Below, piece after piece: positions 6,481-44,546 of a stretch of DNA of 44,849 bases. Position 1 is the first letter of the stretch; every line of letters starts with the position of its first letter. The DNA lies in the IMG/VR virus record IMGVR_UViG_3300048915_000091; one strand, written 5' to 3'. The notes beneath the pieces were generated by a model. It searched no databases and was not told the DNA's origin. It saw only the letters and a program-made list of their open reading frames with translations. The position numbers and the translations under genes are program-made. The DNA comes from a virus.

Positions 6481-6728
6481 GCGAAGAACGCCGTTGCGAT
6501 AAGTGCGATCGTCTTATTTACCAATGGGGCGCGCATGACGGATTTAACTGCGAAGCTTGGCCCGAAATGGGAATCGGGCAAACGTCGGTTGCATACAAGG
6601 GCTTCGAAGTCGTTCGGTTTAATGGGCGTTGGGCGTATTCGGTCCATGGTCGGGATGAATGGGTTTACGTCGCTTCGCCGGTCGACGCTTTTGCGGAAAT
6701 CGACAGCTTGCACGATCGCAAGGCTTGA
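6477..6728 (+). CDS. Hypothetical protein (83 aa)
   Basis: Track ORF. ATGA overlap upstream and a terminator downstream. Confidence 0.55.
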   Translation: MSEERRCDKCDRLIYQWGAHDGFNCEAWPEMGIGQTSVAYKGFEVVRFNGRWAYSVHGRDEWVYVASPVDAFAEIDSLHDRKA

Positions 6729-6738
6729 CTGCCCAAGG

Positions 6739-6769
6739 GGAGCGCGGCAAACGTCGCGTTCCTCTTTTT
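6739..6769 (+). terminator. Rho-independent terminator
   Basis: GGAGCGCG-GCAAACGT-CGCGTTCC hairpin followed by TCTTTTTG. Confidence 0.7.
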
Positions 6770-6792
6770 GCATAGGGCAGGGGCAAAACAGC

Positions 6793-7461
6793 ATGAACAG
6801 AATTACCGCCGAAGGCTTCGACTATCAGGGCGAAGCCGATAAAACGTGTTCGATCGAATGGGGCGCGCACAAGGTCAATCGCGCGGACTTCCTTGCGCAG
6901 CTTCGGGTTTTCGCCGTAACCGCGCAAATCCTGAACCTTTATAAGAAGCTTCTCTTTCGCGGCAAGCTGCCTGAAGACGTTGGATTGCTTCAGCCGTCGA
7001 ATGCGGCGAGCCTTTTGGACTTCATTCCCGACGCCGACGTTGATCTTGTCCATGGGATCGTCGGCATTGCGACCGAAGCGGGCGAAGCCGTCGAAATCCT
7101 TATTGCGATGATCGAAGGCACGCCGCCCGATCGCGTCAACGCCGTTGAAGAAGCGGGCGATCTTCGTTGGTATATCAACCGCGTGCTTCGTTGGGCGAAC
7201 GTTACCGACGAAGAATGCGAGCGCGCGAACATCGCCAAGCTTCACGGGCGCGGCTTCGCCTTCGGCTTCAATGCCCAGGCGGATAGCAACCGCGACCTTC
7301 AGGCCGAACGCGCGATCTTGGAAAGCGCGACGCTGCCCGGCATTGTCGAACCGCGTACGTCCGATATGGCCGATATGTGCGACGCGGAACGCGCGGGCTA
7401 TCGCGACCCCATGCTTCGGCTTCCGTCGGGCGTGTACGGCGATGAACCCGGCAATGGGTAA
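6793..7461 (+). CDS. mazG: MazG-like nucleoside triphosphate pyrophosphohydrolase
   Basis: Internal ATG of track ORF 6535..7461, after the terminator. HGIVGIATEAGEAVEIL...NAVEEAGDLRWYINRVL fits the all-alpha MazG EEXX(E/D) motifs (EAGE ... EE.GD..WY). Confidence 0.75.
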   Translation: MNRITAEGFDYQGEADKTCSIEWGAHKVNRADFLAQLRVFAVTAQILNLYKKLLFRGKLPEDVGLLQPSNAASLLDFIPDADVDLVHGIVGIATEAGEAVEILIAMIEGTPPDRVNAVEEAGDLRWYINRVLRWANVTDEECERANIAKLHGRGFAFGFNAQADSNRDLQAERAILESATLPGIVEPRTSDMADMCDAERAGYRDPMLRLPSGVYGDEPGNG

Positions 7462-31575: not shown

Positions 31576-33537
31576 TTAGAAAAGCCCGCCTTGTTTCGTC
31601 GAACCGAAATACCCTAGATCGCCAAGCATTCCGAAAGCCCGATCGATGTAGTATTCATATGCGATATCGGTCGGGCATTCGTCGGGCAGTTCCATAAGAG
31701 GGCAAGCGCCTTCAGAATTCGGAACCTTGTTGCCGGTTGCGATATAGTTGATTACGCCTTGCACGCCTTGCGCATAGTACCAACGAATTGTTTTGCCTAG
31801 AAAATAGCCGTCTTTATGCGCGCCGCCTCGCACGTTGCGAACGACGACAAAGCGGCGGATATCCTGGCACGCGCGAACCGTCTTTTCGATCGGCGTTCCC
31901 TTCGACAAGAAAGCCTGCACCGCGTCCGAACATATTAACGCTTCGGGGTTTTTCGACATTGCGGAATTTTGGGCCGAACCGCGTTCGGAATACGCGCCCT
32001 TTGCCTTCGTCGAACCGTCTTCCTTGATCGCGATATAATTGTTCACGTCGCGCGAGTAAACGGCGGCGTAACGCGTTTCTTCAGTCTGAAGCGACGTTAT
32101 GCGCTCCCATTCGGCGATAACAGCGCCTAACATATTGCCCATGCGCTTAGGGCACTTGATAATAACGCCGTCGGTATTAGCCGACACGATCGGAATTCCT
32201 GCCGCTTCGATCATTTCGATTAGCTTTAGGATAACAAGCTGGCCCGTTATCGTAACCTGAATTAGAAGATCGGGCGAGAAGATTGACGAATAGAACGACC
32301 CTAGCTTGCCGAAGATGCCGTTAATCGCGATCTTCAATCCTGCCTCTAGCTTGTCCTTCAGCTTCTTCAGTTCCATTCGACGAAGAACAAGCCCGTCGCG
32401 GAAGATTTCAATAAACAGCTTGCCGATATGCTTCGGAAAGAAACCCGAATTGATTATAAGCCAAGGGTAAAACGATACAACGTCGCGGTCGATTAGATCG
32501 GTTTCGTCATCGGCTTTGTGAACTGCCGTCTTCTCGCTGGAATGAAGCCCTCCCATGCCCATTTTATAGACGCAAGAGCCAATCCGTATCGACAGCTTGG
32601 ACAGGGCTTCAGGCATGACCGGGGCGCCGCTGCCGTCCAGCCTAAAGGGGACGGCCTGGACAATCCGCAAGGCTTCCTGAAGCTGTGGATTGTCAAACGA
32701 CAGATATTCCGGCGGCTGATAGAAGAATTCGTAATCGTCCGGCAAATCCGGCTTCTTCGGCGAGAAGCCGCGCGCTTCGCGTATCTTCGCGTTAATGAAC
32801 GCTTCGCCCACCTGGGCATCGGATTTCGAACGGATATCCTGATTGATTTCGGCGCCCAACCGCTCGCGCAATTCGACATGCGGCTTTAGCCCGTATGTGG
32901 GGTGCGAGTATAAAAGTTCGGTATTATCAAGATCGTTGAAACAATAATCTCGCGTATCAATCACGTCTTGCGGCGACAAATCCGAATGCGGATCGATCGG
33001 CAATTCCTGCATTCGCTTGCAATGAAGCCGGGCAGCATAAAGCTTCAACGAACCTTCAAGCGGTGCGACTTCGATCAAGTCGATATGATTGTACGGCGCC
33101 CGCCAATTCGCCTTGCGTTCGTCGCGAATGATTATGTCGTCGCTAAGTTCCTTCAGTTCGTACAGCGTCGCACCTTTGCAAGCCGCTTCGATCATCGGGA
33201 TATCGTACGAAATCGAGTTAAACCCGATAATCTTGAACCAATGCAACGCCCTATGCAGTTCGGTTCGCATCCATTCGGGAAGCGGACCTTCGCCGCAGTG
33301 TTCGACGTAAAAATATTCTCCGGTTCCAATGTTCTTAAAGGCGCAAAGGAAGTAGTTTCGATAACATTCAACGTCGAAAACGACTTCGGTTCCGACAGAA
33401 TAATTCCACGGCGAAACGCTGAACTTGCGCAAAACCGGCGAGTACGACAGGCGCTTTAGAACGCCGTCGTATCGCTTGGCTTTGCGCTTCGTCGGAAGCG
33501 GCGCGTAATCGTCTAACGTTGAATTGTCAAAGAACAT
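31576..33537 (-). CDS. DNA polymerase with 3-5 exonuclease, family-B-like motifs
   Basis: Track ORF of 653 aa. Exo motifs are FDVECY, GFNSISYDIPMI and YCFNDLDNT. Pol motifs are DVVSFYPWLI (DxxSLYPS-like), KIAINGIFGKLG (KxxxNSxYG-like) and SANTDGV (DTD-like). The C-terminus is KQGGLF. Confidence 0.85.
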   Translation of the reverse strand: MFFDNSTLDDYAPLPTKRKAKRYDGVLKRLSYSPVLRKFSVSPWNYSVGTEVVFDVECYRNYFLCAFKNIGTGEYFYVEHCGEGPLPEWMRTELHRALHWFKIIGFNSISYDIPMIEAACKGATLYELKELSDDIIIRDERKANWRAPYNHIDLIEVAPLEGSLKLYAARLHCKRMQELPIDPHSDLSPQDVIDTRDYCFNDLDNTELLYSHPTYGLKPHVELRERLGAEINQDIRSKSDAQVGEAFINAKIREARGFSPKKPDLPDDYEFFYQPPEYLSFDNPQLQEALRIVQAVPFRLDGSGAPVMPEALSKLSIRIGSCVYKMGMGGLHSSEKTAVHKADDETDLIDRDVVSFYPWLIINSGFFPKHIGKLFIEIFRDGLVLRRMELKKLKDKLEAGLKIAINGIFGKLGSFYSSIFSPDLLIQVTITGQLVILKLIEMIEAAGIPIVSANTDGVIIKCPKRMGNMLGAVIAEWERITSLQTEETRYAAVYSRDVNNYIAIKEDGSTKAKGAYSERGSAQNSAMSKNPEALICSDAVQAFLSKGTPIEKTVRACQDIRRFVVVRNVRGGAHKDGYFLGKTIRWYYAQGVQGVINYIATGNKVPNSEGACPLMELPDECPTDIAYEYYIDRAFGMLGDLGYFGSTKQGGLF

Positions 33538-33546
33538 AACGAAGCC

Positions 33547-34815
33547 TTAGAACGGCACGTCGTCATCGTCAATATCAACGAAGCCGGGGACCGTGCCCAC
33601 GATAGCCGCCCAAGGGTTCGCCGGATCGCCCGCCGGGGCTTCAGCGGTCGACGGTTCGGGAACGCCCCAGGTGCCCGCCTGAACGCCGCTGCGCAGGGAT
33701 GCGAAGGCTTCGCCGACTTGCTCCCCCGTCGCGCCTTCGGGCAGCGTCCAAGCCGCCACGACGGCAGGCGGTTCCGGGGCAGGCTCGCGCGCTTCGGCCC
33801 GCGCCTTCATAATGCAGCCGCGAAGGCTTCCGGTTTCGTCGAAGAAAAACGCGCGATCGTCATTCGACGTGTAATCAAGTTGGGCGCAAACGGGTTCGAT
33901 TGATCGGAACAGCTTCGCCGTGAACGAATGCCCTTTTTGCAAACCCGGAACGTCAAACGTCGCGCCGTAAACCGGGCTTCCGAAGTCTTGGTACTTGTCG
34001 TACGTCGACTTAACCTTTTCGTCGTGGAAGTGGATAAGCCCGTCTTTGCTGAAGCTTTCCACGGCCTTGACGGCTTCGAACAATCCTTCTGGCACCGGGG
34101 CCGGATAAGCGGGATAATTGAAAAGGTGCGAAGTTTCCGGCCATTTGTCGCCGTACTGTTGCGTTTTATACCAAGAGCCGTCTTCGAAATAGAACGTAAC
34201 CGACTTGTTCGAGAAGCCGAAGCCTTCAAGCTTCTTTCCGCAACCCGCCACGGCTGCCGCGAACGTCTTTGGGATCACAAGCCCCGGCGGAAGGTCAATG
34301 CCGTGCCAATATTCGAAGATTACCTTACCGTTCGTCGAAGTCATCGAATTAGCTTGAAGCAACACCGACACTTCAACAACGCGCTCGCCTTCGTTGTCGA
34401 TAAGCGGCAACAGCCGGGCGAACCCGTCCTTCAGCCGATCGTCAATCGCAGCGCACCGGGGATCGGGCATCGCCTGGGGGATTTGATCGCCCGCAAGGCA
34501 AGGAACCGTCGCGCGAATACGATCGCCTTTGACTAGCAGCGTACCGTTTTCGTTTTCGGTTAGCGCGAGCGTCGAACCGGCCCGGTTCAAGGCGTCGATA
34601 AAGCGCCCGATATGTGGGCAAAGGGCAAGTTCTTCTTCGACGCTATGCCCGGCGGAAAATACGCCGTCGGTTGCGGTTATCATCTTGCCAGCTAGGCGAG
34701 CGTGCGCCTTGTACGCTTCTTCGCCGTCTTTGTACGCGGGCGCAATGAAGTTCAACGCTTCGGCGAGTTTCGACGCCGCTTCGGATTTTGCCTTGCGGCT
34801 TGGACGCTTTGCCAT
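33547..34815 (-). CDS. DnaN-like sliding clamp fused to an SSB-type linker and acidic tip
   Basis: Track ORF of 422 aa. MITATDGVFSAG, LLVKGDRIRATVPCLAGDQIP, TSTNGKVIFEYW, LVIPKTFAAAV and WYKTQQYGDKWPETSHLF parallel E. coli DnaN segments. The C-terminus is ...VDIDDDDVPF. Confidence 0.6.
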   Translation of the reverse strand: MAKRPSRKAKSEAASKLAEALNFIAPAYKDGEEAYKAHARLAGKMITATDGVFSAGHSVEEELALCPHIGRFIDALNRAGSTLALTENENGTLLVKGDRIRATVPCLAGDQIPQAMPDPRCAAIDDRLKDGFARLLPLIDNEGERVVEVSVLLQANSMTSTNGKVIFEYWHGIDLPPGLVIPKTFAAAVAGCGKKLEGFGFSNKSVTFYFEDGSWYKTQQYGDKWPETSHLFNYPAYPAPVPEGLFEAVKAVESFSKDGLIHFHDEKVKSTYDKYQDFGSPVYGATFDVPGLQKGHSFTAKLFRSIEPVCAQLDYTSNDDRAFFFDETGSLRGCIMKARAEAREPAPEPPAVVAAWTLPEGATGEQVGEAFASLRSGVQAGTWGVPEPSTAEAPAGDPANPWAAIVGTVPGFVDIDDDDVPF

Positions 34816-34816
34816 T

Positions 34817-35023
34817 TCAATTGCCCTTTCGCTGTACGGCGACGGCCCAAGTTCCGCGAAGCGTTTCGGGAACGTCCCCGCGAAACTCGAATTTCAACGT
34901 AACCGCTTCAACGTCGTACCCGTCGGGAACATTAGCGTCGGCGTCGGCATACATTGACATTCCTTCAAGAATGTTTCGCCCGAAATTCTCGCAAAAGTCG
35001 CGATCAACTTCAATCTTTGCCAT
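34817..35023 (-). CDS. Hypothetical protein (68 aa)
   Basis: Track ORF. GAAAGG SD. Its stop and the clamp ATG are 1 nt apart (TGAAATG). Confidence 0.45.
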   Translation of the reverse strand: MAKIEVDRDFCENFGRNILEGMSMYADADANVPDGYDVEAVTLKFEFRGDVPETLRGTWAVAVQRKGN

Positions 35024-35026
35024 TGT

Positions 35027-35239
35027 TCAGCCTTTCAGTTCGAAACATTCGCAACCGTATGCGATAACTCGCGCGGGCGGTCGCTGCCCGTTCAGTCGGC
35101 AGGCTTCCGACGGTTCGTCGAAGTTCCTGCAAAGGACGCAAGTTCGCGCCGTCTTGATTACATATCCGGCAAGACATTCGGCCATATAGCGCGAAAGGTC
35201 CGCTATCCCTTCAGGGCTGCGATTGCGCCAATCGGTCAA
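35027..35239 (-). CDS. Small Cys4 protein (70 aa)
   Basis: Track ORF. TTG start overlaps the helicase stop (TTGA). CVLCRNF-x8-CRLNG-x10-GCECF has the same spacing as the C-terminus of the nuclease at 36984..37886. Confidence 0.5.
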   Translation of the reverse strand: MTDWRNRSPEGIADLSRYMAECLAGYVIKTARTCVLCRNFDEPSEACRLNGQRPPARVIAYGCECFELKG

Positions 35240-36987
35240 AATTCATATCCTAACACTTGGGGATTTTTAGTGTTCAACCAAACCCGAATGCGGCGAGGCG
35301 TGCGAAGGTATCCGGCATTTGCGAGAATTTCGGCGTTGCTTTCCGGCGGTTCGACGGGCGCCCGTTGGCGAAACCAATCGCGACCCTTCTTCCTGGGGAA
35401 GCCGTCACCTTCGACCGTAATCCATTCGTAAAAGGTCCGAAGATCGGCGGTAAAGTACGAAACCTTAATTGACGCTCTGCCGGACGAACGCGACGTATGC
35501 GGCGAATACACGACGCGTAAAACGTCGAAGTATTCGACAACCGGCAAATCGGACCTAAGAAGTTCTTCGTTGCTGGAAGTGCCGTCGATATTCGGCCCTT
35601 CGTATTGAATGTCGAATGTTTCCCCACAAACAACGCATTCTTTGGCTGTAGTGTGAGCGTAGGCCCCGCAACCGGCTTGCTTGTCTATCATCTTGCCGAC
35701 TGAACAAATCTTAACAGGCGCATCGCCCGGCTTGCCGTTGCCTTTCGGTTTCGGGATTACCGGATCATTGATCGGCCCCAGGCGGCGCGTATTGCCAGCG
35801 AAGTCCAACACTAAGCAATGATGCTTAATGAATTCGAAACCGGGGATATACTGTTGCGGGTTCGTATAGTCGTACGGGCGCGTTCCTCGCCCTAGCATCT
35901 GAACCCATAGCCCGGTTGACATAGTTGGCCGAAGCATGGCGATTAGATCAATCGGGGGATGATCGAAGCCCGTCGTAAGAATGTCTTTGTTGACAATACA
36001 ACGCAACTCGCCGCGCTTGAACGCCGCAATAATTTCGTCGCGCTGCCCCTGGGGCATCTTTGAATGAACCGCAGCCGCCGGAACGCCGAAGGTCGACCGC
36101 AGCATTTCCGCGATGTGTTCGGCGTGTTCAATGCCGCTCGCGAAGATAAGCCAAGATCGCCGCTGCATTCCCTGTTGAACGACTTCGCAAAGGGCTTCGT
36201 ACGTAATGTCGTCTTTGTCGACGGCAGCTTGCAATGCGCCTTCGATAAAATCGCCAGTCGACGACATGCCGACGCCCGATACGTCAAGTTCGGTCGCCGT
36301 TTTCTTCGGGAAGATCGGGCAAAGGTAACCTTCGGCAATAAGGCGCGAGAAACCTTGAATATCGCAAAGGTTGTACGCAATGTCGGTAAATATCGGCCCG
36401 TTCGTTAAAAGCCCCATGCCTAGACGATAGATTGTCGCACTAAGTCCAATGATCTTCAGATAAGGATTGATCGCCTTTAGCTGAAGGATGAAGTCGCCGT
36501 AAGAACTATCCGCCGAAGGTCCAACTAGGTGCGCTTCGTCGATAATCATTAGATCGCGAAAGCCGAAGATCGAACGCCCGTCTTCGTCGACGCCGCGAAC
36601 CATCGATTTAACGCCGCCGAAGATGATCGGTTGTATGAAGTCCTTTTGCTTTAGCCCGGCGGAATAGATACCAAGCGGCGCATTCGGCCAAACCCTTTGA
36701 AGTTGCTTCGCGTTTTGTTCGATCAACTCTTTGACGTGAGTTGACATGATAACCCGCGTTTGGGGAAACACGTCGTACACTCGCCGAAGAAACTTCGCGA
36801 TAACGAACGACTTACCTGTTCCCGTCGGCAGGGCGATAAGCGGGTTCGCTTCGATCGGGCGCCCTTCGAAGTCGGTTCCGCCGTGTTCGTCGAAGTACCG
36901 AAAAAGCGTATCAACCGCTTCCTCTTGATACCATCGATCAAGCGACGGCCCGCCGTTGTGCCCGATTGTCGCGAACGGCGCGTTCAT
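35236..36987 (-). CDS. Superfamily 2 DEAD/DEAH-box helicase
   Basis: Track ORF 35236..37065. I prefer the ATG at 36987, which forms an ATGA overlap with the nuclease stop. The alternative is 37002. Motif I is LPTGTGKS, motif II is IIDEAHLVG and motif VI is QMLGRGTR. Confidence 0.85.
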   Translation of the reverse strand: MNAPFATIGHNGGPSLDRWYQEEAVDTLFRYFDEHGGTDFEGRPIEANPLIALPTGTGKSFVIAKFLRRVYDVFPQTRVIMSTHVKELIEQNAKQLQRVWPNAPLGIYSAGLKQKDFIQPIIFGGVKSMVRGVDEDGRSIFGFRDLMIIDEAHLVGPSADSSYGDFILQLKAINPYLKIIGLSATIYRLGMGLLTNGPIFTDIAYNLCDIQGFSRLIAEGYLCPIFPKKTATELDVSGVGMSSTGDFIEGALQAAVDKDDITYEALCEVVQQGMQRRSWLIFASGIEHAEHIAEMLRSTFGVPAAAVHSKMPQGQRDEIIAAFKRGELRCIVNKDILTTGFDHPPIDLIAMLRPTMSTGLWVQMLGRGTRPYDYTNPQQYIPGFEFIKHHCLVLDFAGNTRRLGPINDPVIPKPKGNGKPGDAPVKICSVGKMIDKQAGCGAYAHTTAKECVVCGETFDIQYEGPNIDGTSSNEELLRSDLPVVEYFDVLRVVYSPHTSRSSGRASIKVSYFTADLRTFYEWITVEGDGFPRKKGRDWFRQRAPVEPPESNAEILANAGYLRTPRRIRVWLNTKNPQVLGYEF

Positions 36988-37886
36988 ACAATCCGGCGCC
37001 ATTGTGGGCAGCCCTGGGGGACTAACTCGCGCTGAATGATGCCGTCGAAGATGCGACAATGCCACTCGCCCCCGTCGACGGGCGAAGCGTGTTCACAGCT
37101 TCGGCAATTGACTTCGGGCGCGGCCCCGTGATGGCATATCGGCGAATAGTGGCAAAGCTTGCATTCGCCGAACGCGGCGCTTTGCGCGATCTTCGCGGGC
37201 GGGATTTGGCTGAAGATCACGCGGCCCGCCTTTTCGTACAAGCGAACGCCGTGGTTGAAATCAAGTTGAATGATTTCGAAATAAAGTTCGTCGGTTTCCT
37301 TATTGACGGCACAATACAGCCCGTACGGCAAAGCGTACGCCTGCCCGTACGACGACATTTGCGAGAAATGCACCGGCTTCGACTTGCGCATACCTTCAGC
37401 CTTAGCCGTGTTGCGCGTCAATACTGGCCATTTCGAAGTGATCGGCCCTGCAAGCTTGGCGAATGACTTTTCGTTATGCGTTTTGAATTCGACAAGCAAC
37501 GGCCCCGGCAAGCCATAGCGCACGGGAGCAATTGCGATGCCGTCAAGGGAACCGCCATAATGCCCCATATGTCCGCTGATTTTGTATTGTTTGCCGTCGG
37601 CGTCGAACTCGAAAACTTCAAAGCCAATCCGACGAAGCCGCTTAATAAATTTCGGTTCTTCGTAATGACCGCGCTTAAACAGCCGGTGCTTTCGCCCGTC
37701 GTGCTTTTCCTGCCGAAGCCAACGAAAGCCCGCCCAAAGCTGCATTTCGCAAGGCTTGCCGATTTCGGAACCGCCAAGATGCCAGCGCGGCCCTTCTTCG
37801 TATTCGGCAACGCTATCGGCTTCGACTTCCGCGCTTATAGTCGCGGCGAGCCTTTCGCGTTCCGTTTGAAACGACAAGTCGAACAC
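36984..37886 (-). CDS. Cas4-like PD-(D/E)XK nuclease with Fe-S cysteines and an extra zinc ribbon
   Basis: I use the in-frame GTG at 37886, placed after AAAGGGGA, instead of the track start at 38399, which would run through the SSB gene. Motifs are GSLDG...LVEFKT (D..E.K), an N-terminal C, and CKLCHYSPIC (C-x2-C-x5-C). Confidence 0.75.
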   Translation of the reverse strand: MFDLSFQTERERLAATISAEVEADSVAEYEEGPRWHLGGSEIGKPCEMQLWAGFRWLRQEKHDGRKHRLFKRGHYEEPKFIKRLRRIGFEVFEFDADGKQYKISGHMGHYGGSLDGIAIAPVRYGLPGPLLVEFKTHNEKSFAKLAGPITSKWPVLTRNTAKAEGMRKSKPVHFSQMSSYGQAYALPYGLYCAVNKETDELYFEIIQLDFNHGVRLYEKAGRVIFSQIPPAKIAQSAAFGECKLCHYSPICHHGAAPEVNCRSCEHASPVDGGEWHCRIFDGIIQRELVPQGCPQWRRIV

Positions 37887-37971
37887 GTCAAATCCCCTTT
37901 GTCGGACTGTGCCAGTAAGGCGAACGGCAGTCGTACCCGTTCGATTACGTCGGGGGACGCCCGGCACGGCC

Positions 37972-38001
37972 CGACAAAGGGCAGGGACCGAAGCCCCTGC
38001 C
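37972..38001 (-). terminator. Hairpin/attenuator after the SSB gene
   Basis: On the minus strand, GGCAGGGGCTTCGGTCCCTGCC is followed by CTTTGTC. The U-tract is weak. Confidence 0.45.
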
Positions 38002-38010
38002 GATTGACGC

Positions 38011-38727
38011 TTAACGCTGGCCCCAACCGGGCGCCCCGCCGCCGGAACCCTGCGACCAAGCCTGTTGACCATTGCCGCCCGCTGCCGCGCCGCCGCCCTG
38101 GGCACCGGCCCCGCCGCCTTGCGCGCCCCAACCGCCGCCGGTTGTCTGCCCGCCCTGGGGCTGTTGTCCCGGCTGGCCCTGCGCAGCACCGGCGCCCGGC
38201 TGGAAACCGCCGCCCGGCTGACCCTGGGGCTGCTGGCCCTGGGGATTGCCGCTTGCGCCGCCAAAGCCTGCCGAACCGCCGCCAAAGCCGCCGCCCTGCT
38301 GCGCACCGGCACCGGCCTTGTTCGGTTCGTTGCCGTTGATATCGTAAAGCTTGCCGATCTTTGTACGGTTGGCGTTGCGTTCGTCGGGATCGGGGGCAAT
38401 GTCGACGACGAACGGCTTCCCGTGCAGTTCTTCGGTTGCCTGGAAGCGGAAGACGCCGATTACGTGACAATACGCCGAAAGCTGCCCGTTAGCGATACGA
38501 ACCGTGTCGGGGTTCTTGTTGTGAAGGTTCAGGCGGTCGATATGCTGAACGCCCTTCGCCGGACCATCGATCGCTTCAAGCGTAAGTGCGAGAAAACCGC
38601 CGGTTCCGTCCTTAGTCGGCTTCAGTTCGCTCCCCACAATAACGACGGGATGCTTGCCGACGGGCAGTTGCGAGCCGCCGCCGTACGACGGATCGATGCC
38701 GTTGCTATCAAACTGGAATGCAGGCAT
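38011..38727 (-). CDS. ssDNA-binding protein (DUF669-like) with about 100-aa Gly/Gln-rich tail
   Basis: Track ORF. Strong initiation region GAAAGGAAGTCAAATG. An OB-like N-terminal about 135 aa sits next to a Sak4-like ATPase, as in many phage recombination modules. Low-complexity GGGFGGG/QGQQPQG tail. Confidence 0.65.
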   Translation of the reverse strand: MPAFQFDSNGIDPSYGGGSQLPVGKHPVVIVGSELKPTKDGTGGFLALTLEAIDGPAKGVQHIDRLNLHNKNPDTVRIANGQLSAYCHVIGVFRFQATEELHGKPFVVDIAPDPDERNANRTKIGKLYDINGNEPNKAGAGAQQGGGFGGGSAGFGGASGNPQGQQPQGQPGGGFQPGAGAAQGQPGQQPQGGQTTGGGWGAQGGGAGAQGGGAAAGGNGQQAWSQGSGGGAPGWGQR

Positions 38728-38742
38728 TTGACTTCCTTTCGA

Positions 38743-39717
38743 TTATACGTCGCGATTGAAAAGATCGATTGCCCCGCCCGTCGCGACGTTTACGGCGTTG
38801 GCGATTTGGTTCCACGAATGCCCTGCGATCAAATTCGAAGGCGTACCCTGGGGAGCCGTTGGAAGCGGGATTTCGCCGGATATGCCGAAGCGGTTGCCTG
38901 CGACATACGACGGCTTGCGAACAACGCCCGCAACTCGCCCTTGGTTCATTGAAGTAGCCTGTTGAATTTGATCGCCCTTCGTAATGAACATTGGTTCATG
39001 AACAAACGCGATCATATCCGCCCATTGCGTCAACATTTCGCGTTTGCCGTAGTTCTTATTATTCTTCGGCGAATGCAAGAGCAAATCCCAAGCGTCATAT
39101 TCGCCGAACGCGGGATCGATCGCCTTCGACGCAAAAACATGCGCGGTGAAGATTACGTTAATGCCGCCGTAAAACGCTAGTTCGTCAAGTGCGGTCAACA
39201 GCTTGCCGAACTGTTCGTTCGCATAGCCGTACGCCTTGCCGTATCCTCCTAGCGCGCTTTCCATTGTAACGCCCTTGGGATTGCCCGGCTTGTAATCCTT
39301 GTCGCTCGCAATCGTCTTTTCGTGAATGCGCTGTTCGGTCGCCGTGGCGCTATCGAGTACGATCGATCGGAAGGGGAATTGCCCCGCCTGGGCACGGCGC
39401 TTGATATCGTCGACCGTCGCAAGCAATTCGTCGAACGTTTCGATTTGCTTCGTCTTCGGAACGACGATTGATCCATATCCCATTTCAAGAGGGATCAACA
39501 GGGCGCTCGGCGCCCCGCAAGCGAGCGTTGTCTTGCCGATCTTTTCAACGCCCGACACGACGATACGTGCGCCGACTTGCCGCGTTACGCTTTCGATCGT
39601 GTCAAGCGCGCTCTTGCCCGGCGCCTGGGGAGCGAAGCCGCCGAACGCTGCCGCGTTGTTTGTGGGCTGCCCGAAACCGGGATTGTTCGCGCCTAGGGCG
39701 TCGGCAAAAGCGTTCAT
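38743..39717 (-). CDS. Sak4-like RecA-fold AAA ATPase
   Basis: Track ORF 38743..39762. I prefer the ATG at 39717 (TAATG junction). Walker A is SGVEKIGKTT and Walker B-like is SIVLDSAT. Confidence 0.75.
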   Translation of the reverse strand: MNAFADALGANNPGFGQPTNNAAAFGGFAPQAPGKSALDTIESVTRQVGARIVVSGVEKIGKTTLACGAPSALLIPLEMGYGSIVVPKTKQIETFDELLATVDDIKRRAQAGQFPFRSIVLDSATATEQRIHEKTIASDKDYKPGNPKGVTMESALGGYGKAYGYANEQFGKLLTALDELAFYGGINVIFTAHVFASKAIDPAFGEYDAWDLLLHSPKNNKNYGKREMLTQWADMIAFVHEPMFITKGDQIQQATSMNQGRVAGVVRKPSYVAGNRFGISGEIPLPTAPQGTPSNLIAGHSWNQIANAVNVATGGAIDLFNRDV

Positions 39718-39959
39718 TAGTTCATTGCCTTTCGTGCAGCGGTGCAAGCTTCGCAGTTGCAACCTTCCTTCGGCGTCGGCTTTCCGAACAACAAATCGAA
39801 TAAATCGCCGCCTTCAAGATCGTCAAGCGAAACGATCACAACGCGCGGCGGTTTCGAACTTTCAATTTCGGCTAGTTCGTCGACGATAGGCTTTGCCTTC
39901 GCGTCGTATTCTTCCTGCAACGCGCGCAATTGCTCTTTCAGTTCCGTTTCACGGTCCAT
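39717..39959 (-). CDS. Hypothetical coiled-coil protein (80 aa)
   Basis: Internal ATG of track ORF 39717..40133, preceded by AAAGGAACCGGCACT, a variant of the start-associated sequence. MDRETELKEQLRALQEEYDAKAKP... Confidence 0.5.
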   Translation of the reverse strand: MDRETELKEQLRALQEEYDAKAKPIVDELAEIESSKPPRVVIVSLDDLEGGDLFDLLFGKPTPKEGCNCEACTAARKAMN

Positions 39960-40839: not shown

Positions 40840-41049
40840 ATGACAACCCCTAGCGATAGCGTGCCGCTGCTAGAGCGGACGCTTTATCTTGTGAACAACG
40901 CGCCCCGATCGATCACGTTCGCCGAAATGGCGAGGCAAATCGACGTTTCGCCTTCATGGGTAAGCGCGTTCGCAAAAGACCTTATTCCCGACCCTGGCGT
41001 TCGGAAGGTTCAAGCGTTGCATGATTACCTTTCAGGGCTGCAAATCTAA
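40840..41049 (+). CDS. Small helix-turn-helix DNA-binding protein (69 aa)
   Basis: Internal ATG of track ORF 40354..41049. SITFAEMARQIDVSPSWVSAFAKD is a plausible HTH. TAATG junction with the primase gene. Confidence 0.55.
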   Translation: MTTPSDSVPLLERTLYLVNNAPRSITFAEMARQIDVSPSWVSAFAKDLIPDPGVRKVQALHDYLSGLQI

Positions 41050-43421
41050 TGGCGTTCGATGCAATCCCTTCCGAAATGCGCTTTTACCGCCAATGGATCG
41101 TGTGGCGGCTGGAAGATCAAGGCGGGCCGAAACCGACGAAGGTTCCGTACTCACCTATCGTCGCTGGCGCTAAGGCTGCCGTCGACAAGGCGTCGACCTG
41201 GGGCACGTTTGAAGACGCCTTGCGCGCGTTCGATAGCGGCGCCTTTAGCGGTATCGGCTTCGTCCTTACCGACGATGATCCTTACGTTTTTATCGACCTT
41301 GACGACCCCAAGGGCGACGACGAAATCTTTCAACGTCAACAGCGCATCTTTCACGAAATCCAATCGTACGCCGAACGCTCGCCATCGGGCACCGGCTTGC
41401 ACATCATTGGCAAGGGCAGCATTCCGCGCGGTCGCAAGCGGGCGCAAATCGAAATCTATTCAAACCTTCGCTTCATGACCATGACCGGCGACGTTTATCG
41501 CGACGCGCCGATTATCGAATGCCAAGATGCGGCAATGTTGCTTTGGCATCAAATGGGCGGACCGGCTTCGATCCACCAATACGGCGGCAACGCCGAACAG
41601 AAAGAAGACGACGCAAGCGTTATCGGTAAGGCGCTGTCTGCCCTGAACGGCGACAAGTTCCGCGCGCTGTACGAAGGCGATTGGGAAAGCCTTTACGCCT
41701 CGCAATCTGAAGCCGATTTCGCGCTTGTCGATATCGTCGCGTTTTATACGCAAAACCGCGATCAAATCGCACGCATCTTCCGCGCGTCGAAGCTTGGCGA
41801 GCGCGACAAAGCGAAGCGCGACGATTACGTTTCGTACATGGTGAACAAGTCGTTCGATCGGCAGTTGCCCGAAATCGATATCGAAGGGCTAAAGGTCCAG
41901 TTCGACGACCTTTTGCAGCCGGAAGAACAGATTGAATTGCCGGGGTTCCTGAACGGTAACGGGGCGGTGGAAGGACCAACCGCCCCGACCGATGCGGAAC
42001 CGGGCAGGACCGCGCTTCAGGCGACGCCACAAGTCGCACAAGGCCCTGAAGGCGTCAACCCGTCCGACATAATTTTACCCCCAGGCTTGCTAGGGGAAGT
42101 CGCGAACTTCATTTACGAAGCCGCGCCGCGTCCAGTGCGTGAAATTGCCCTAGTCGGCGCGATCGGCCTTGTTGCCGGTATTGTGGGCAAGGCGTTCAAC
42201 ATATCAGCAACCGGCCTGAATATGTACGTCCTTTGCCTCGCCCCAACGGGCACGGGTAAAGAAGCCATCAACGCGGGCGTATCGAAGTTGATTAGCGCGT
42301 GTCTGCCGACGTGCCCCGTAATTGCCGATTTCGTCGGACCGGGCGAAACACGATCGGACGCGGCGCTTATCAAATGGCTCGCCCGTCAACCTTGCGTGTT
42401 CAGCGTACAAGGCGAATGGGGAATGCGTCTAAAACAGATGGCAAGCCCGTTCGCGAACTCGAACGAAATCGGCGTTAAGAAGGTCGTAATGGACCTGTTT
42501 AACAAGTCCGGTCACGGCAACATCCTAAACCCGATGGCGTATTCGGATAAGGATAAGAACACGCCGCCGATCGCCGCCCCTTCATTTACCCTAATCGGCG
42601 AAAGCACGCCCGAAAAGTTTTACGAAGCCCTTGACGAAGGCATGATTGCCGACGGCTTCCTTCCTCGCTTCCTAACGATCGAATATCAGGGCAAGCGGCC
42701 CGCTATGTCCAAAAGCGCGGCATATGCGAAACCGTCGTTCGCCCTAATCGATATGGTCACCGAACTAACCGCGCACGTCAAACAGGTTATGTCATCGGGC
42801 GGCGTCGTTCAGGTGCGAGCCGATCCATACGCCGAAAAGCTGCTAGACGACTTCGACAAGTTTGCAGATGCCCACATTAACGACGGTCAAGCAAACGAAG
42901 TCGTTCGGCATATGTGGAACCGTGCGCACGTCAAGGCGCTGAAGCTTGCCGCCCTGGTCGCCGTTGGCCAGTACCCGTACGATCCCTGCATTGATATCGA
43001 CGCGGCCCGTTGGGCTTGCGATCTTGTCGCTCGCGATATCGTGTCTGTCATCAACCGCTTTCAAACCGGCGACATTGGCGCTGGCGTCATGGGCACGACC
43101 GAAGCGAAGCAAGTCGCGGATATGGTTCGCGCAATCTCGCGTTGGGCGAAGGACGAAACCGGGCAGGAAGCGGCTAAGTACGGCATACCGGGCAATATGC
43201 ACGCGGCAGGCGTATTCCCGTTGTCGGCGCTAACGCAAAGGCTCTTTCAGCTTGCGTCGTATCGCAACGATAAGGTCGGCGCGACAAATGCGATCAAGCG
43301 CGCATTGCAGCATTTGTTAGATGCCGATGATCTTCGCGAGTTGCCGCGTAAGCAAATGCAAGACACATTCGGAACCGCCGCACGCGCATTCGTAATATCG
43401 AAACCGCAGAATTTTGTATAG
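41049..43421 (+). CDS. Primase-polymerase (AEP) fused to PriCT-like and DUF3987-type helicase/NTPase domains
   Basis: Track ORF of 790 aa. AEP motifs are FIDLDDP and SPSGTGLHI. QSEADFALVDIVAFYT is PriCT-like. Walker A is APTGTGKEA. Confidence 0.85.
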   Translation: MAFDAIPSEMRFYRQWIVWRLEDQGGPKPTKVPYSPIVAGAKAAVDKASTWGTFEDALRAFDSGAFSGIGFVLTDDDPYVFIDLDDPKGDDEIFQRQQRIFHEIQSYAERSPSGTGLHIIGKGSIPRGRKRAQIEIYSNLRFMTMTGDVYRDAPIIECQDAAMLLWHQMGGPASIHQYGGNAEQKEDDASVIGKALSALNGDKFRALYEGDWESLYASQSEADFALVDIVAFYTQNRDQIARIFRASKLGERDKAKRDDYVSYMVNKSFDRQLPEIDIEGLKVQFDDLLQPEEQIELPGFLNGNGAVEGPTAPTDAEPGRTALQATPQVAQGPEGVNPSDIILPPGLLGEVANFIYEAAPRPVREIALVGAIGLVAGIVGKAFNISATGLNMYVLCLAPTGTGKEAINAGVSKLISACLPTCPVIADFVGPGETRSDAALIKWLARQPCVFSVQGEWGMRLKQMASPFANSNEIGVKKVVMDLFNKSGHGNILNPMAYSDKDKNTPPIAAPSFTLIGESTPEKFYEALDEGMIADGFLPRFLTIEYQGKRPAMSKSAAYAKPSFALIDMVTELTAHVKQVMSSGGVVQVRADPYAEKLLDDFDKFADAHINDGQANEVVRHMWNRAHVKALKLAALVAVGQYPYDPCIDIDAARWACDLVARDIVSVINRFQTGDIGAGVMGTTEAKQVADMVRAISRWAKDETGQEAAKYGIPGNMHAAGVFPLSALTQRLFQLASYRNDKVGATNAIKRALQHLLDADDLRELPRKQMQDTFGTAARAFVISKPQNFV

Positions 43422-43994: not shown

Positions 43995-44546
43995 ATGCAA
44001 GGTGCGAAGGTTGTTCCGATTGATAAGGCGACAGCCGATCGATTGATTGTCGCTAGGCATTATAGCAAGCGCGCTTCGATCTTTTGGAAAGGCTTCGCGC
44101 TTGTGTTCGACGGGCGCGTTTATGGCGTTGTCGTGTACGGGCAGCCTTCTCCGCCTATTCAAAAGCATTCGTTTAAAGATCGCGATTTTCGCTTGTACGA
44201 ATTGTCGCGCCTTGTCATTCAAACAACGAAGCGCAACGCGGCGAGTTACCTTGTCGCGCAAAGTTTGAAGATGCTCGAACAGCCTTGCGCGGTTGTGTCG
44301 TATGCCGATAGCGAACACGGGCACGCGGGCATTGTCTATCAAGCGACGAATTGGATTTACACCGGCGCGACGAAATCGCACGATCATGCCTATCTTGTCG
44401 ACGGCAAGCGCGTTCATCCGATTTCGCTTCGTGACAAAGGGATAACCGATCCGAAGCGATGGGCGAAAGAAAACGGGATCAAGACGTTACCCCCCCTGCG
44501 ACAAACATCGTTATTTCTTCATTTGCGGCAATCGTCGGCAGCGTAA
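43995..44546 (+). CDS. Mom-like GNAT-fold DNA modification protein (as read; probably continues to 44655 after a +1 shift at C7 run 44490-44496)
   Basis: Track ORF. ARHYSKR, ELSRLV, VVSYADSEHGHAGIVYQATNWIYTG match my recollection of the family annotated as Mom-type adenine-modifying enzymes. The +1 frame gives DKHRYFFICGNRRQRKDMLAKLTYPIVAEYPK... Confidence 0.55.
   Translation: MQGAKVVPIDKATADRLIVARHYSKRASIFWKGFALVFDGRVYGVVVYGQPSPPIQKHSFKDRDFRLYELSRLVIQTTKRNAASYLVAQSLKMLEQPCAVVSYADSEHGHAGIVYQATNWIYTGATKSHDHAYLVDGKRVHPISLRDKGITDPKRWAKENGIKTLPPLRQTSLFLHLRQSSAA

Follow-up and report, generated by a model that had tools for sequence, protein, structure and literature searches.

We asked why a phage sliding clamp should end in the docking peptide of SSB, the bacterial protein that binds single-stranded DNA, and which proteins such a peptide might bind. 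The clamp is encoded in a 44,849-nucleotide stretch of viral DNA (IMG/VR record IMGVR_UViG_3300048915_000091; hereafter the window, meaning this whole stretch), whose 44.8 kb is approximately the length of the complete genomes of its relatives. Positions 31576-34815 of the window are filled by two adjoining minus-strand genes, one for the clamp (33547-34815, 422 residues) and one for a DNA polymerase (31576-33537, 653 residues). A preliminary description, made from the letters and open reading frames (ORFs) of this DNA, had read the first protein as a DnaN-like clamp extended by a disordered linker and an acidic, SSB-like tip, and the second as a B-family-type polymerase ending in KQGGLF; it had noted that the phage's own SSB candidate has no acidic tip and that no clamp loader is present, and it had proposed that the SSB interaction hub was moved onto the clamp, an architecture it believed to be undescribed. 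We found that the clamp has the DnaN fold and a conserved SSB-type tip, and that related phages place this tip on several interchangeable carriers, the clamp among them.

The clamp matched PHROG 947, "DNA polymerase processivity factor" (E-value 1.4e-53, residues 14-339 of the protein against positions 9-364 of the 368 in the profile), a family for which 303 phage records have homologues annotated as replicative clamp. A Pfam scan of the clamp returned no match at E ≤ 0.1, the DNA_pol3_beta domains included, and a profile of the clamp family searched against the sequences in the PDB found H. pylori DnaN only, with a borderline E-value of 0.012; because of these two results, a fold search was needed. 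An AlphaFold2 (AF2) model built on 73 homologues had a mean predicted local distance difference test (pLDDT) score of 87, with values above 90 across approximately residues 11-340. When this model was compared with the PDB by Foldseek, the structural check that the preliminary description had proposed, the top matches were all DnaN proteins (E-values from 1.9e-19 to 1e-17, template modelling (TM) score 0.72 for the target, ~370 aligned columns), and the alignment covered all three domains at 12-14% identity. At the level of the model, the 422-residue protein is confirmed as a three-domain clamp of the bacterial beta type, with a homology that is visible by fold and not by a curated sequence model, as the Pfam scan was empty and the Foldseek search was positive. 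The core, a predicted three-domain ring subunit (residues 1-337, 33805-34815), has a computed isoelectric point (pI) of 5.8. An acidic core pI has been associated with ring clamps that depend on a loader (PMC3201878), and by that criterion the value is typical of, and would fit, a ring-type clamp that requires one. The phage 73 homologue of this protein was listed as a relative of polIII-beta by Kazlauskas and Venclovas in 2011, with its tail unmentioned (PMC3201878). A separate homologue (L055:7276-9261) was called as a protein of 661 residues, about twice the normal length, which may reflect a fusion at the N-terminus or an error in calling the start.

In beta, polymerases and the clamp loader bind the face of the ring on which the C-terminus is located. 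Here it continues into an 85-residue tail (residues 338-422, 33550-33804), an acidic Ala/Pro-rich linker whose length varies among homologues and which is rich in A, P, V, G and E, with 14 acidic and 3 basic residues. The C-terminal stretch reads GTVPGFVDIDDDDVPF / VPGFVDIDDDDVPF, and the stop codon comes directly after the last nine residues, DIDDDDVPF (residues 414-422, 33550-33576). Most of the tail scored pLDDT 44-67, the exception being a predicted helix, GEQVGEAFASLRSG (residues 364-377, 33685-33726); the 10-residue block with this helix reached pLDDT 88, and its motif is kept in the closest relatives, recurring in homologues P0002, P0003, P0006, P0007 and P0017. A second short helix was modelled at residues 401-406. 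Judged by the model, the earlier wording of a disordered linker with an acidic tip is nearly, and not wholly, right: the tip is there and pLDDT is mostly low, and it is complete disorder that the helix at 364-377 speaks against. In the clade of the window (P0001-P0022) the tails share one order of elements, namely a Pro run after the core, a helix of the ATGEQVAEAFAGVQ type, GWG, a Trp-containing linker motif DPNAxAWA, and a terminal [DE]DD[IV]PF; the Trp motif, conserved in these tails, takes the form (D)PANPWAAIVGT in the window (33592-33624).

The tip agrees with the sequence definition of the C-terminal SSB peptide (SSB-Ct), [DE][DE][DE]-[IV]-P-F with a free carboxylate, and the relatives show the variants EDDIPF, DDDIPF and DDEIPF. 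The clamp is the sole reading frame of the 44.8-kb window with an SSB-Ct-like end. The tip is attached to a clamp instead of an oligonucleotide/oligosaccharide-binding (OB)-fold core for single-stranded DNA (ssDNA), so the protein is not an SSB. A database search for such tips among clamp homologues, suggested in the preliminary description, found them widely: the tip is present in 22/22 close homologues (linkers of 47-105 residues), in 35 of the 73 family members used for the model (linkers of 18-105 residues, variable in sequence), and in 34 of 144 further representatives, clustered at 50% identity, that we examined from a clamp family comprising 1841 clusters at E ≤ 1e-3. Examples in cultured phages are the clamps of Pseudomonas phage 73 (gp027, ending NYEDDIPF) and Rhodobacter phage RcSpartan (ending YFDPDDEIPF). 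Because it is so conserved, we regard the tip as not due to chance and very probably functional.

Other features of the clamp tails may be recorded here. Some tails are Cys-rich (CNGAGAIISPSGFIKCTECGGDGLQIPF, GCNCADCEIPF and CPACGNAGCEECIID, among P0172, P0071 and L013:2733-4055), and here a zinc ribbon may have been joined to the clamp along with the tip. Clamps without IPF that have long acidic tails ending in GWG-type sequences also occur (SEGWGQADA, SQGWGQG and NANPGWG, among L014, L020, L023, L029, P0037, P0077 and P0111). The GWG and DPNAxAW motifs are common to the clamp tails of the window's clade (33592-33678 of the window, minus strand) and to the phage SSB tail, and the two kinds of tail may share a second partner through the GWG-type motifs.

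The gene downstream of the clamp encodes an enzyme with an N-terminal 3'-5' exonuclease that matched PHROG 1252 (E-value 4e-182) and carries the motifs FDVE (ExoI), DVVSFYP (A), KIAINGIFG (B) and NTDG (C). Its Pfam DNA_pol_B score was below the cut-off (13.2 against 23 bits), and a phmmer search of the PDB matched B-family palm domains, those of Sulfolobus PolB1 (1s5j, E-value 1e-5), Pol alpha and E. coli Pol II. Going by its motifs, the 653-residue enzyme is a divergent B-family polymerase. Its C-terminal end is STKQGGLF. Ligands of the beta clamp carry QL(S/D)LF-like motifs, and E. coli Pol II ends QLGLF. We found an [LMFI][FW] ending in 39 of 43 distinct polymerase C-termini from related loci (e.g., TAALSFF, TASLFF, KQISFF, EQVDMFA and KQGGLF itself), and the C-terminal motif was present whether the clamp was tailed or tailless; the putative motif in the window (KQGGLF, 31579-31596) fits a clamp-binding motif of the QL(S/D)LF kind, in line with the earlier proposal. 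Polymerases lacking a QxxLF-type end were seen in the Queuovirinae phages CAjan, 9g and JG054 (L084, L085 and L086), which end LEDMGYA, LEKLAYAA and RAIGYSSKA, and there the contact between polymerase and clamp must lie elsewhere or differ.

The module has its own SSB, a 238-residue protein (38011-38727, minus strand) assigned to DUF669 by Pfam (E-value 9e-8) and to PHROG 6015 (E-value 9e-53), with a Gly/Gln tail ending GWGQR. The DUF669 protein of phage HK620 is an experimentally demonstrated SSB (PMC5928155). As the preliminary description had observed for the window, these proteins do not carry the hub peptide: an acidic xPF tip was found in 0 of 46 distinct DUF669 C-termini in the related loci (L001-L096). 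What 44 of these 46 C-termini do have is a Trp within the last seven residues, in basic ends such as PWGQR, GWGAR, AWGQK and PPWAQ, which looks like a second, phage-specific C-terminal docking tip (putative). The ORF6 SSB of Enc34 was considered as a relative of the window SSB and ruled out, as it belongs to DUF2815, not DUF669.

We scanned every ORF end in 82 related loci for an SSB-Ct-like tip, and found that phages with a tailless clamp carry it on another protein of the same module. In these loci a small protein of 67-111 residues, encoded directly after the helicase gene and having four invariant cysteines (CxxC...C...GC), ends in [DE]x[IV]PF; examples of its end are GCPSHEDEIPF, YENDDIPF and, in Sphingomonas phage Lucius, WEDKIPF. 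Its orthologue in the window (35027-35239, minus strand, 70 residues, PHROG 23504), recognized from alignments and from the complementary distribution described below, ends GCECFELKG and is tipless, in contrast to most related phages, where the small-protein orthologue carries the tip. When the two carriers were tabulated for 83 loci, the tip was on the clamp but not on the small protein in 30 loci (25 have no small protein and 5 a tipless one), on the small protein but not on the clamp in 39, on both in two, and on neither in five; seven loci were left out because of a truncated clamp or a contig edge upstream. The placement is thus complementary (Fisher p=1e-13, uncorrected for phylogeny), and in three of the five "neither" loci the clamps are near-identical to tip-bearing ones with altered ends (EEDDNFPPF, SDDISV). 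In a neighbor-joining tree of the clamp cores, the small-protein state is spread throughout and the clamp-tip clades (the window clade, the phage-73 clade, L034, L078 and L053, with the RcSpartan type in addition) are nested in at least 4-5 separate places, so that the tip looks to have been transferred onto the clamp at least four to five times. The small proteins of the window clade keep the four cysteines and have divergent, tipless ends (ELKG in the window, KASN in L005, SGT in L006), and such unrelated ends are expected once the constraint has been lifted. The tip of the window lineage most likely came from the small protein, not from an SSB, with the small protein surviving in a tipless form. 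By tblastn, the small protein was found only in genera that also have the clamp; an AF2 model of it was poor (pLDDT 55, 5 sequences) and was not used for a fold search.

A third carrier is the helicase itself. Phages of the Queuovirinae have no small protein and a tipless clamp, and their RadD-like helicase has an extra tail of 50-70 residues that ends in the tip. The helicase of E. coli phage 9g (gp11) ends LPPDFDDDIPF, its last eight residues being those of E. coli SSB, which ends MDFDDDIPF (PMC10238739); those of P. aeruginosa phage JG054 (gp41) and CAjan (gp48) end YTDFDDDIPF and EDPDYVPF, respectively. In Vibrio phage BA3, Rhizobium phage RHEph05 and Microcystis phage Me-ZS1, the gene for a tip-bearing small protein still follows the helicase gene, with the clamp gene 7-8 kb away behind a queuosine cluster, and in E. 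coli K-12 phage Shy the small protein ends HDFDIPF. In HK620 a tip-like peptide, NDYPPF, is on the DUF669 SSB (PMC5928155). The tip, as these C-termini show, is a portable element at the level of the replisome, for which the clamp and several other proteins serve interchangeably as carriers; as far as we can tell, its mobility among carriers is a new observation. The idea that the hub was moved onto the clamp is borne out in that the hub peptide is on the clamp, and falls short in that this is no invention specific to clamps, given the helicase, the small protein and the HK620 SSB as further carriers. The Acinetobacter phage AB_SZL7 (L093/L097) has the module and no SSB-Ct-like ORF end anywhere in its genome. 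In the helicase of AB_SZL7 the helix that follows Walker A is changed (AVCEIM, compared with FIRRVF in its relative Shy), a change that we considered as an explanation of the tip loss and rejected, as no pattern emerged and the helicase-tip phages also lack the RR pair.

The remaining genes of the module form an operon-like minus-strand run in which genes for a Sak4-like ATPase, the DUF669 SSB, a Cas4-domain exonuclease, the helicase and two small ORFs precede clamp and polymerase. The Sak4-like AAA_24 ATPase lies at 38743-39762 (Pfam AAA_24, E-value 5e-27; PHROG 124), the Cas4-domain exonuclease at 36984-38030, its start codon being uncertain (PHROG 1990, E-value 6e-87), and the RadD-like superfamily 2 (SF2) helicase, tipless in the window, at 35236-37065 (Pfam ResIII and Helicase_C; RadD 6jde in the PDB, E-value 3.8e-50). 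The window helicase and its homologues have a conserved C-terminal end, PE[VI]L[GS][YA]E[FWY], and a four-cysteine cluster after the helicase core that resembles the zinc ribbon of RadD. The small four-cysteine gene starts within an overlap with the helicase stop, and the translation of the two is probably coupled. The second small ORF (34817-35023, minus strand, 68 residues) lies between the four-cysteine gene and the clamp gene and has no family match. In Septimatrevirus and Lokivirus a conserved helical protein with the motif LLQRSIVGLAKYGVTTDNNPL is encoded between helicase and clamp (L002:5505-5861, i.e., phage 73 gp028; L083:6697-6933 in Shy; L093:19526-19939 in AB_SZL7); the 68-residue ORF of the window occupies its position and is unrelated to it. 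We considered phage 73 gp028 as a divergent four-cysteine protein and rejected it, since it has no cysteines and is unrelated. The Queuovirinae relatives have 7-deazaguanine (queuosine-type) clusters between helicase and clamp. On the plus strand of the window, 41049-43421 encodes a primase of the archaeo-eukaryotic primase (AEP) type with a helicase, the probable replicative primase-helicase (PHROG 3022, E-value 1e-232; Pfam NrS1-1 pol HBD and DUF3987). A Mom-like DNA modification protein (43995-44546, plus strand; PHROG 1384, E-value 5e-35) and a MazG-like pyrophosphatase (6535-7461, plus strand) are also present, and a structural and lysis module of siphovirus type makes up the remainder of the window. 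The closest relatives of the window phage are metagenomic contigs. Among the window ORFs scanned with Pfam and PHROG we found no clamp loader, as the preliminary description had noted, and none is annotated in the relatives that we examined.

What would the tip dock on? Beyond what the analysis established (the fold, the tip with its conservation and mobility, and the complementary distribution), we infer that the peptide would bind SSB-Ct pockets, and the choice of receptor is likewise inferred. Host SSB-interacting proteins seem to us the most likely clients, with a probability of about 45%, that is, a little short of an even chance. The module's SSB would coat phage ssDNA without the bacterial hub peptide, and because this SSB lacks the peptide, the phage would place it on another component of the fork, be it the helicase, the small protein or the clamp. 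In the window lineage the peptide would have passed to the clamp and been lost from the small protein, so that the 85-residue acidic, flexible clamp tail would present a copy of the SSB docking peptide, [DE]3-[IV]-P-F-COOH, and would tether proteins with SSB-Ct pockets to a phage replisome in which the B-family polymerase binds the clamp through its C-terminal QxxLF-type motif. We favor host clients because long-linker tips keep to the bacterial consensus exactly in phages with clamps only 22-25% identical, because the phage SSB would otherwise leave the phage fork without a connection to the host hub, and because clamp loading is encoded by no member and the chi subunit of the host loader is a classic SSB-Ct client. 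The SSB-Ct docks chi, PriA, RecQ, ExoI, RNase HI, DnaG, RadD and others (PMC10238739). Among these, chi is the best single candidate, as clamp loading alone among replisome functions is encoded by no group member, and a tip on helicase, adaptor or clamp would in each case position the host loader at the fork. Taken to its full extent, the proposal would be that loader-less siphoviruses of proteobacteria (Septimatrevirus, Titanvirus, Lokivirus, Queuovirinae and the window's clade) capture the host DnaX complex via chi with a portable SSB-Ct peptide moved among helicase, small zinc adaptor and clamp, the clamp-borne form being a self-addressed substrate that out-competes host beta in the loading reaction; we advance this stronger version tentatively, as rather doubtful.

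Several observations weigh against host clients, and against chi in particular. The position of the tip does not imply a role in clamp loading, since it sits on the helicase or on the helicase-linked small protein even when the clamp is 7-8 kb off. The cyanophage Me-ZS1 keeps the tip (GDIPF), and chi is, to our knowledge, a proteobacterial protein. The tips of some small proteins are weakly acidic (EDKIPF, EYDIPF), and at least one lineage can do without a tip, as AB_SZL7 has the module and none. Finally, a receptor encoded by the phage has a direct precedent, in that the Sak4 of HK620 needs the NDYPPF tail of its DUF669 SSB (PMC5928155). In our phages, too, the tip might be read by the Sak4-like AAA_24 ATPase, delivered from clamp, helicase or small protein in place of the SSB, and so couple an ATPase for annealing or recombination-dependent replication to the fork. 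The HK620 SSB's final six residues are required for Sak4 to bind SSB-coated ssDNA and to be stimulated in vitro and in vivo (PMC5928155), which makes this the sole receptor hypothesis with direct experimental precedent in homologous proteins; in the window, as in all the relatives that we examined, the Sak4-like gene adjoins that for the DUF669 protein, and the family includes tip variants of the PPF type (EEDDNFPPF in L028/L071, EEPPF and ARPPF in P0082 and P0080). The HK620 tail, however, loads Sak4 onto SSB-coated ssDNA, a logic that is lost once the tail is on a clamp or a helicase; moreover, the tips on long linkers keep the exact consensus (DFDDDIPF, MDDDIPF) in very distant phages with no drift of the kind that NDYPPF shows, and AB_SZL7 retains Sak4 without any tip. 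We therefore hold Sak4 to be an unlikely receptor, if a serious one.

The RadD-like helicase could be a receptor too, activated by the peptide in cis in Queuovirinae or in trans from small protein or clamp, thereby coupling unwinding to the clamp-polymerase. It is a clear RadD homologue (6jde, as above), and E. coli RadD binds the SSB-Ct with a dissociation constant (Kd) of ~5 uM and a stimulation of its ATPase of ~3-fold (PMC10238739); the gene for the small protein, probably coupled in translation to that for the helicase, remains beside it in phages with a distant clamp gene, and the hydrophobic pocket positions are kept, with K or R at the R145 position in 71 of 72 family members. Nominating the helicase on conservation of the RadD pocket nevertheless failed, as its three arginines (Arg21, Arg49 and Arg145) are not conserved: at the R21 and R49 positions, 12 phage helicases have variable residues, most of them non-basic (in the window R21 corresponds to D59, R49 to Q102 and R145 to K204), the R145 position is Ile in the tip-bearing phages BA3 and RHEph05, and a helicase tail that binds its own helicase could exist but would bring no obvious gain. 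We think this improbable, and give equally poor odds to internal wiring in the style of T7, where an acidic, aromatic-ended tail would attach to the phage's polymerase or primase-helicase and so provide a further, flexible link between polymerase and clamp or helicase. T7 offers the same format, an acidic tail with a terminal Phe on the helicase and on another replisome protein (as cited in PMC5686142), and the tip carriers here are the immediate partners of the polymerase; yet the T7 tails lack the I-P-F signature, whereas the match to the bacterial SSB-Ct here reaches eight residues, the polymerase already has a conserved (putative) clamp-binding motif, and no result of ours points to a pocket on the polymerase. 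Least probable of all would be a decoy, in which abundant tip proteins titrate the host's SSB-interacting repair and restart proteins, shutting down host DNA transactions or evading defences. This was a second suggestion of the preliminary description and agrees with the identity between the phage 9g tip and E. coli SSB, but the tip is always on a replisome component of one operon, never on a small peptide by itself or on an early protein unrelated to it, and the complementary, one-carrier pattern fits recruitment better than bulk titration.

Whichever receptor applies, a conserved peptide of host-SSB type on clamp, helicase or adaptor provides a testable handle on the links between phage replisome and host, or on its internal wiring. 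How loader-less phage clamps reach DNA has been an open question since the first surveys of viral replicases (PMC3201878). The module occurs in the E. coli K-12 phages 9g, CAjan and Shy and, among candidates for phage therapy of P. aeruginosa, in the phage 73 group, so that established SSB-Ct tools (chi or PriA pocket mutants, peptide competition and SSB-Ct inhibitors) are directly applicable. A search of open-access papers turned up none that describes an SSB-Ct tip on a clamp, a helicase or an adaptor, and in that respect the preliminary remark that such a clamp was undescribed stands. Nor is the architecture rare: deposited genomes have contained it since that of phage 73 in 2006, and it is found in many relatives and in Rhodobacter Titanviruses, annotated just as "replicative clamp". 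The concept of the SSB-Ct hub would be extended by these phages, the peptide being a portable address label and not an attribute of SSB alone.

Set beside known systems, the window clamp resembles cellular DnaN in its three-domain fold over the full length (TM score 0.72), its acidic core pI, its gene order directly upstream of the polymerase gene, and a partner polymerase with a QxxLF-type end like the QLGLF of E. coli Pol II. It differs from DnaN in being only 12-14% identical to the cellular proteins with no Pfam DNA_pol3_beta match, in partnering a B-family phage polymerase with no loader encoded, and in its 85-residue tail with an SSB-Ct tip, which is reported for no characterised clamp. 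With the tail of bacterial SSB it shares a flexible, Pro-rich acidic linker, the [DE]3-[IV]-P-F end and the free carboxylate, and relatives have the exact DFDDDIPF, the reference being the E. coli or general consensus, which may not be the SSB of the window's host; in contrast to SSB, the tail is here on a clamp (in relatives, on a helicase or small Zn protein) and not on an OB-fold core, and there would be two copies per clamp ring compared with four per SSB tetramer. In T7, likewise, more than one protein of the replisome, namely the gp4 helicase and the gp2.5 SSB, docks by an interchangeable element, an acidic tail whose last residue is aromatic; these Phe-ended tails dock on the phage polymerase, gp5, and lack I-P-F, and T7 has no sliding clamp. 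The likeness to E. coli RadD lies in the module helicase, a clear homologue that in Queuovirinae itself carries the SSB-Ct peptide, and the difference in the three-arginine SSB-Ct pocket, which is not conserved in the phage helicases. HK620 has the same two families that adjoin in the window, a DUF669 SSB and an AAA_24 Sak4, and an SSB-Ct-like hexapeptide is essential there (Hutinet et al. 2018, PMC5928155); the HK620 peptide is part of the SSB, whereas in this module the DUF669 tail ends PWGQR (GWGQR in the window) and the peptide is carried by other proteins of the replisome.

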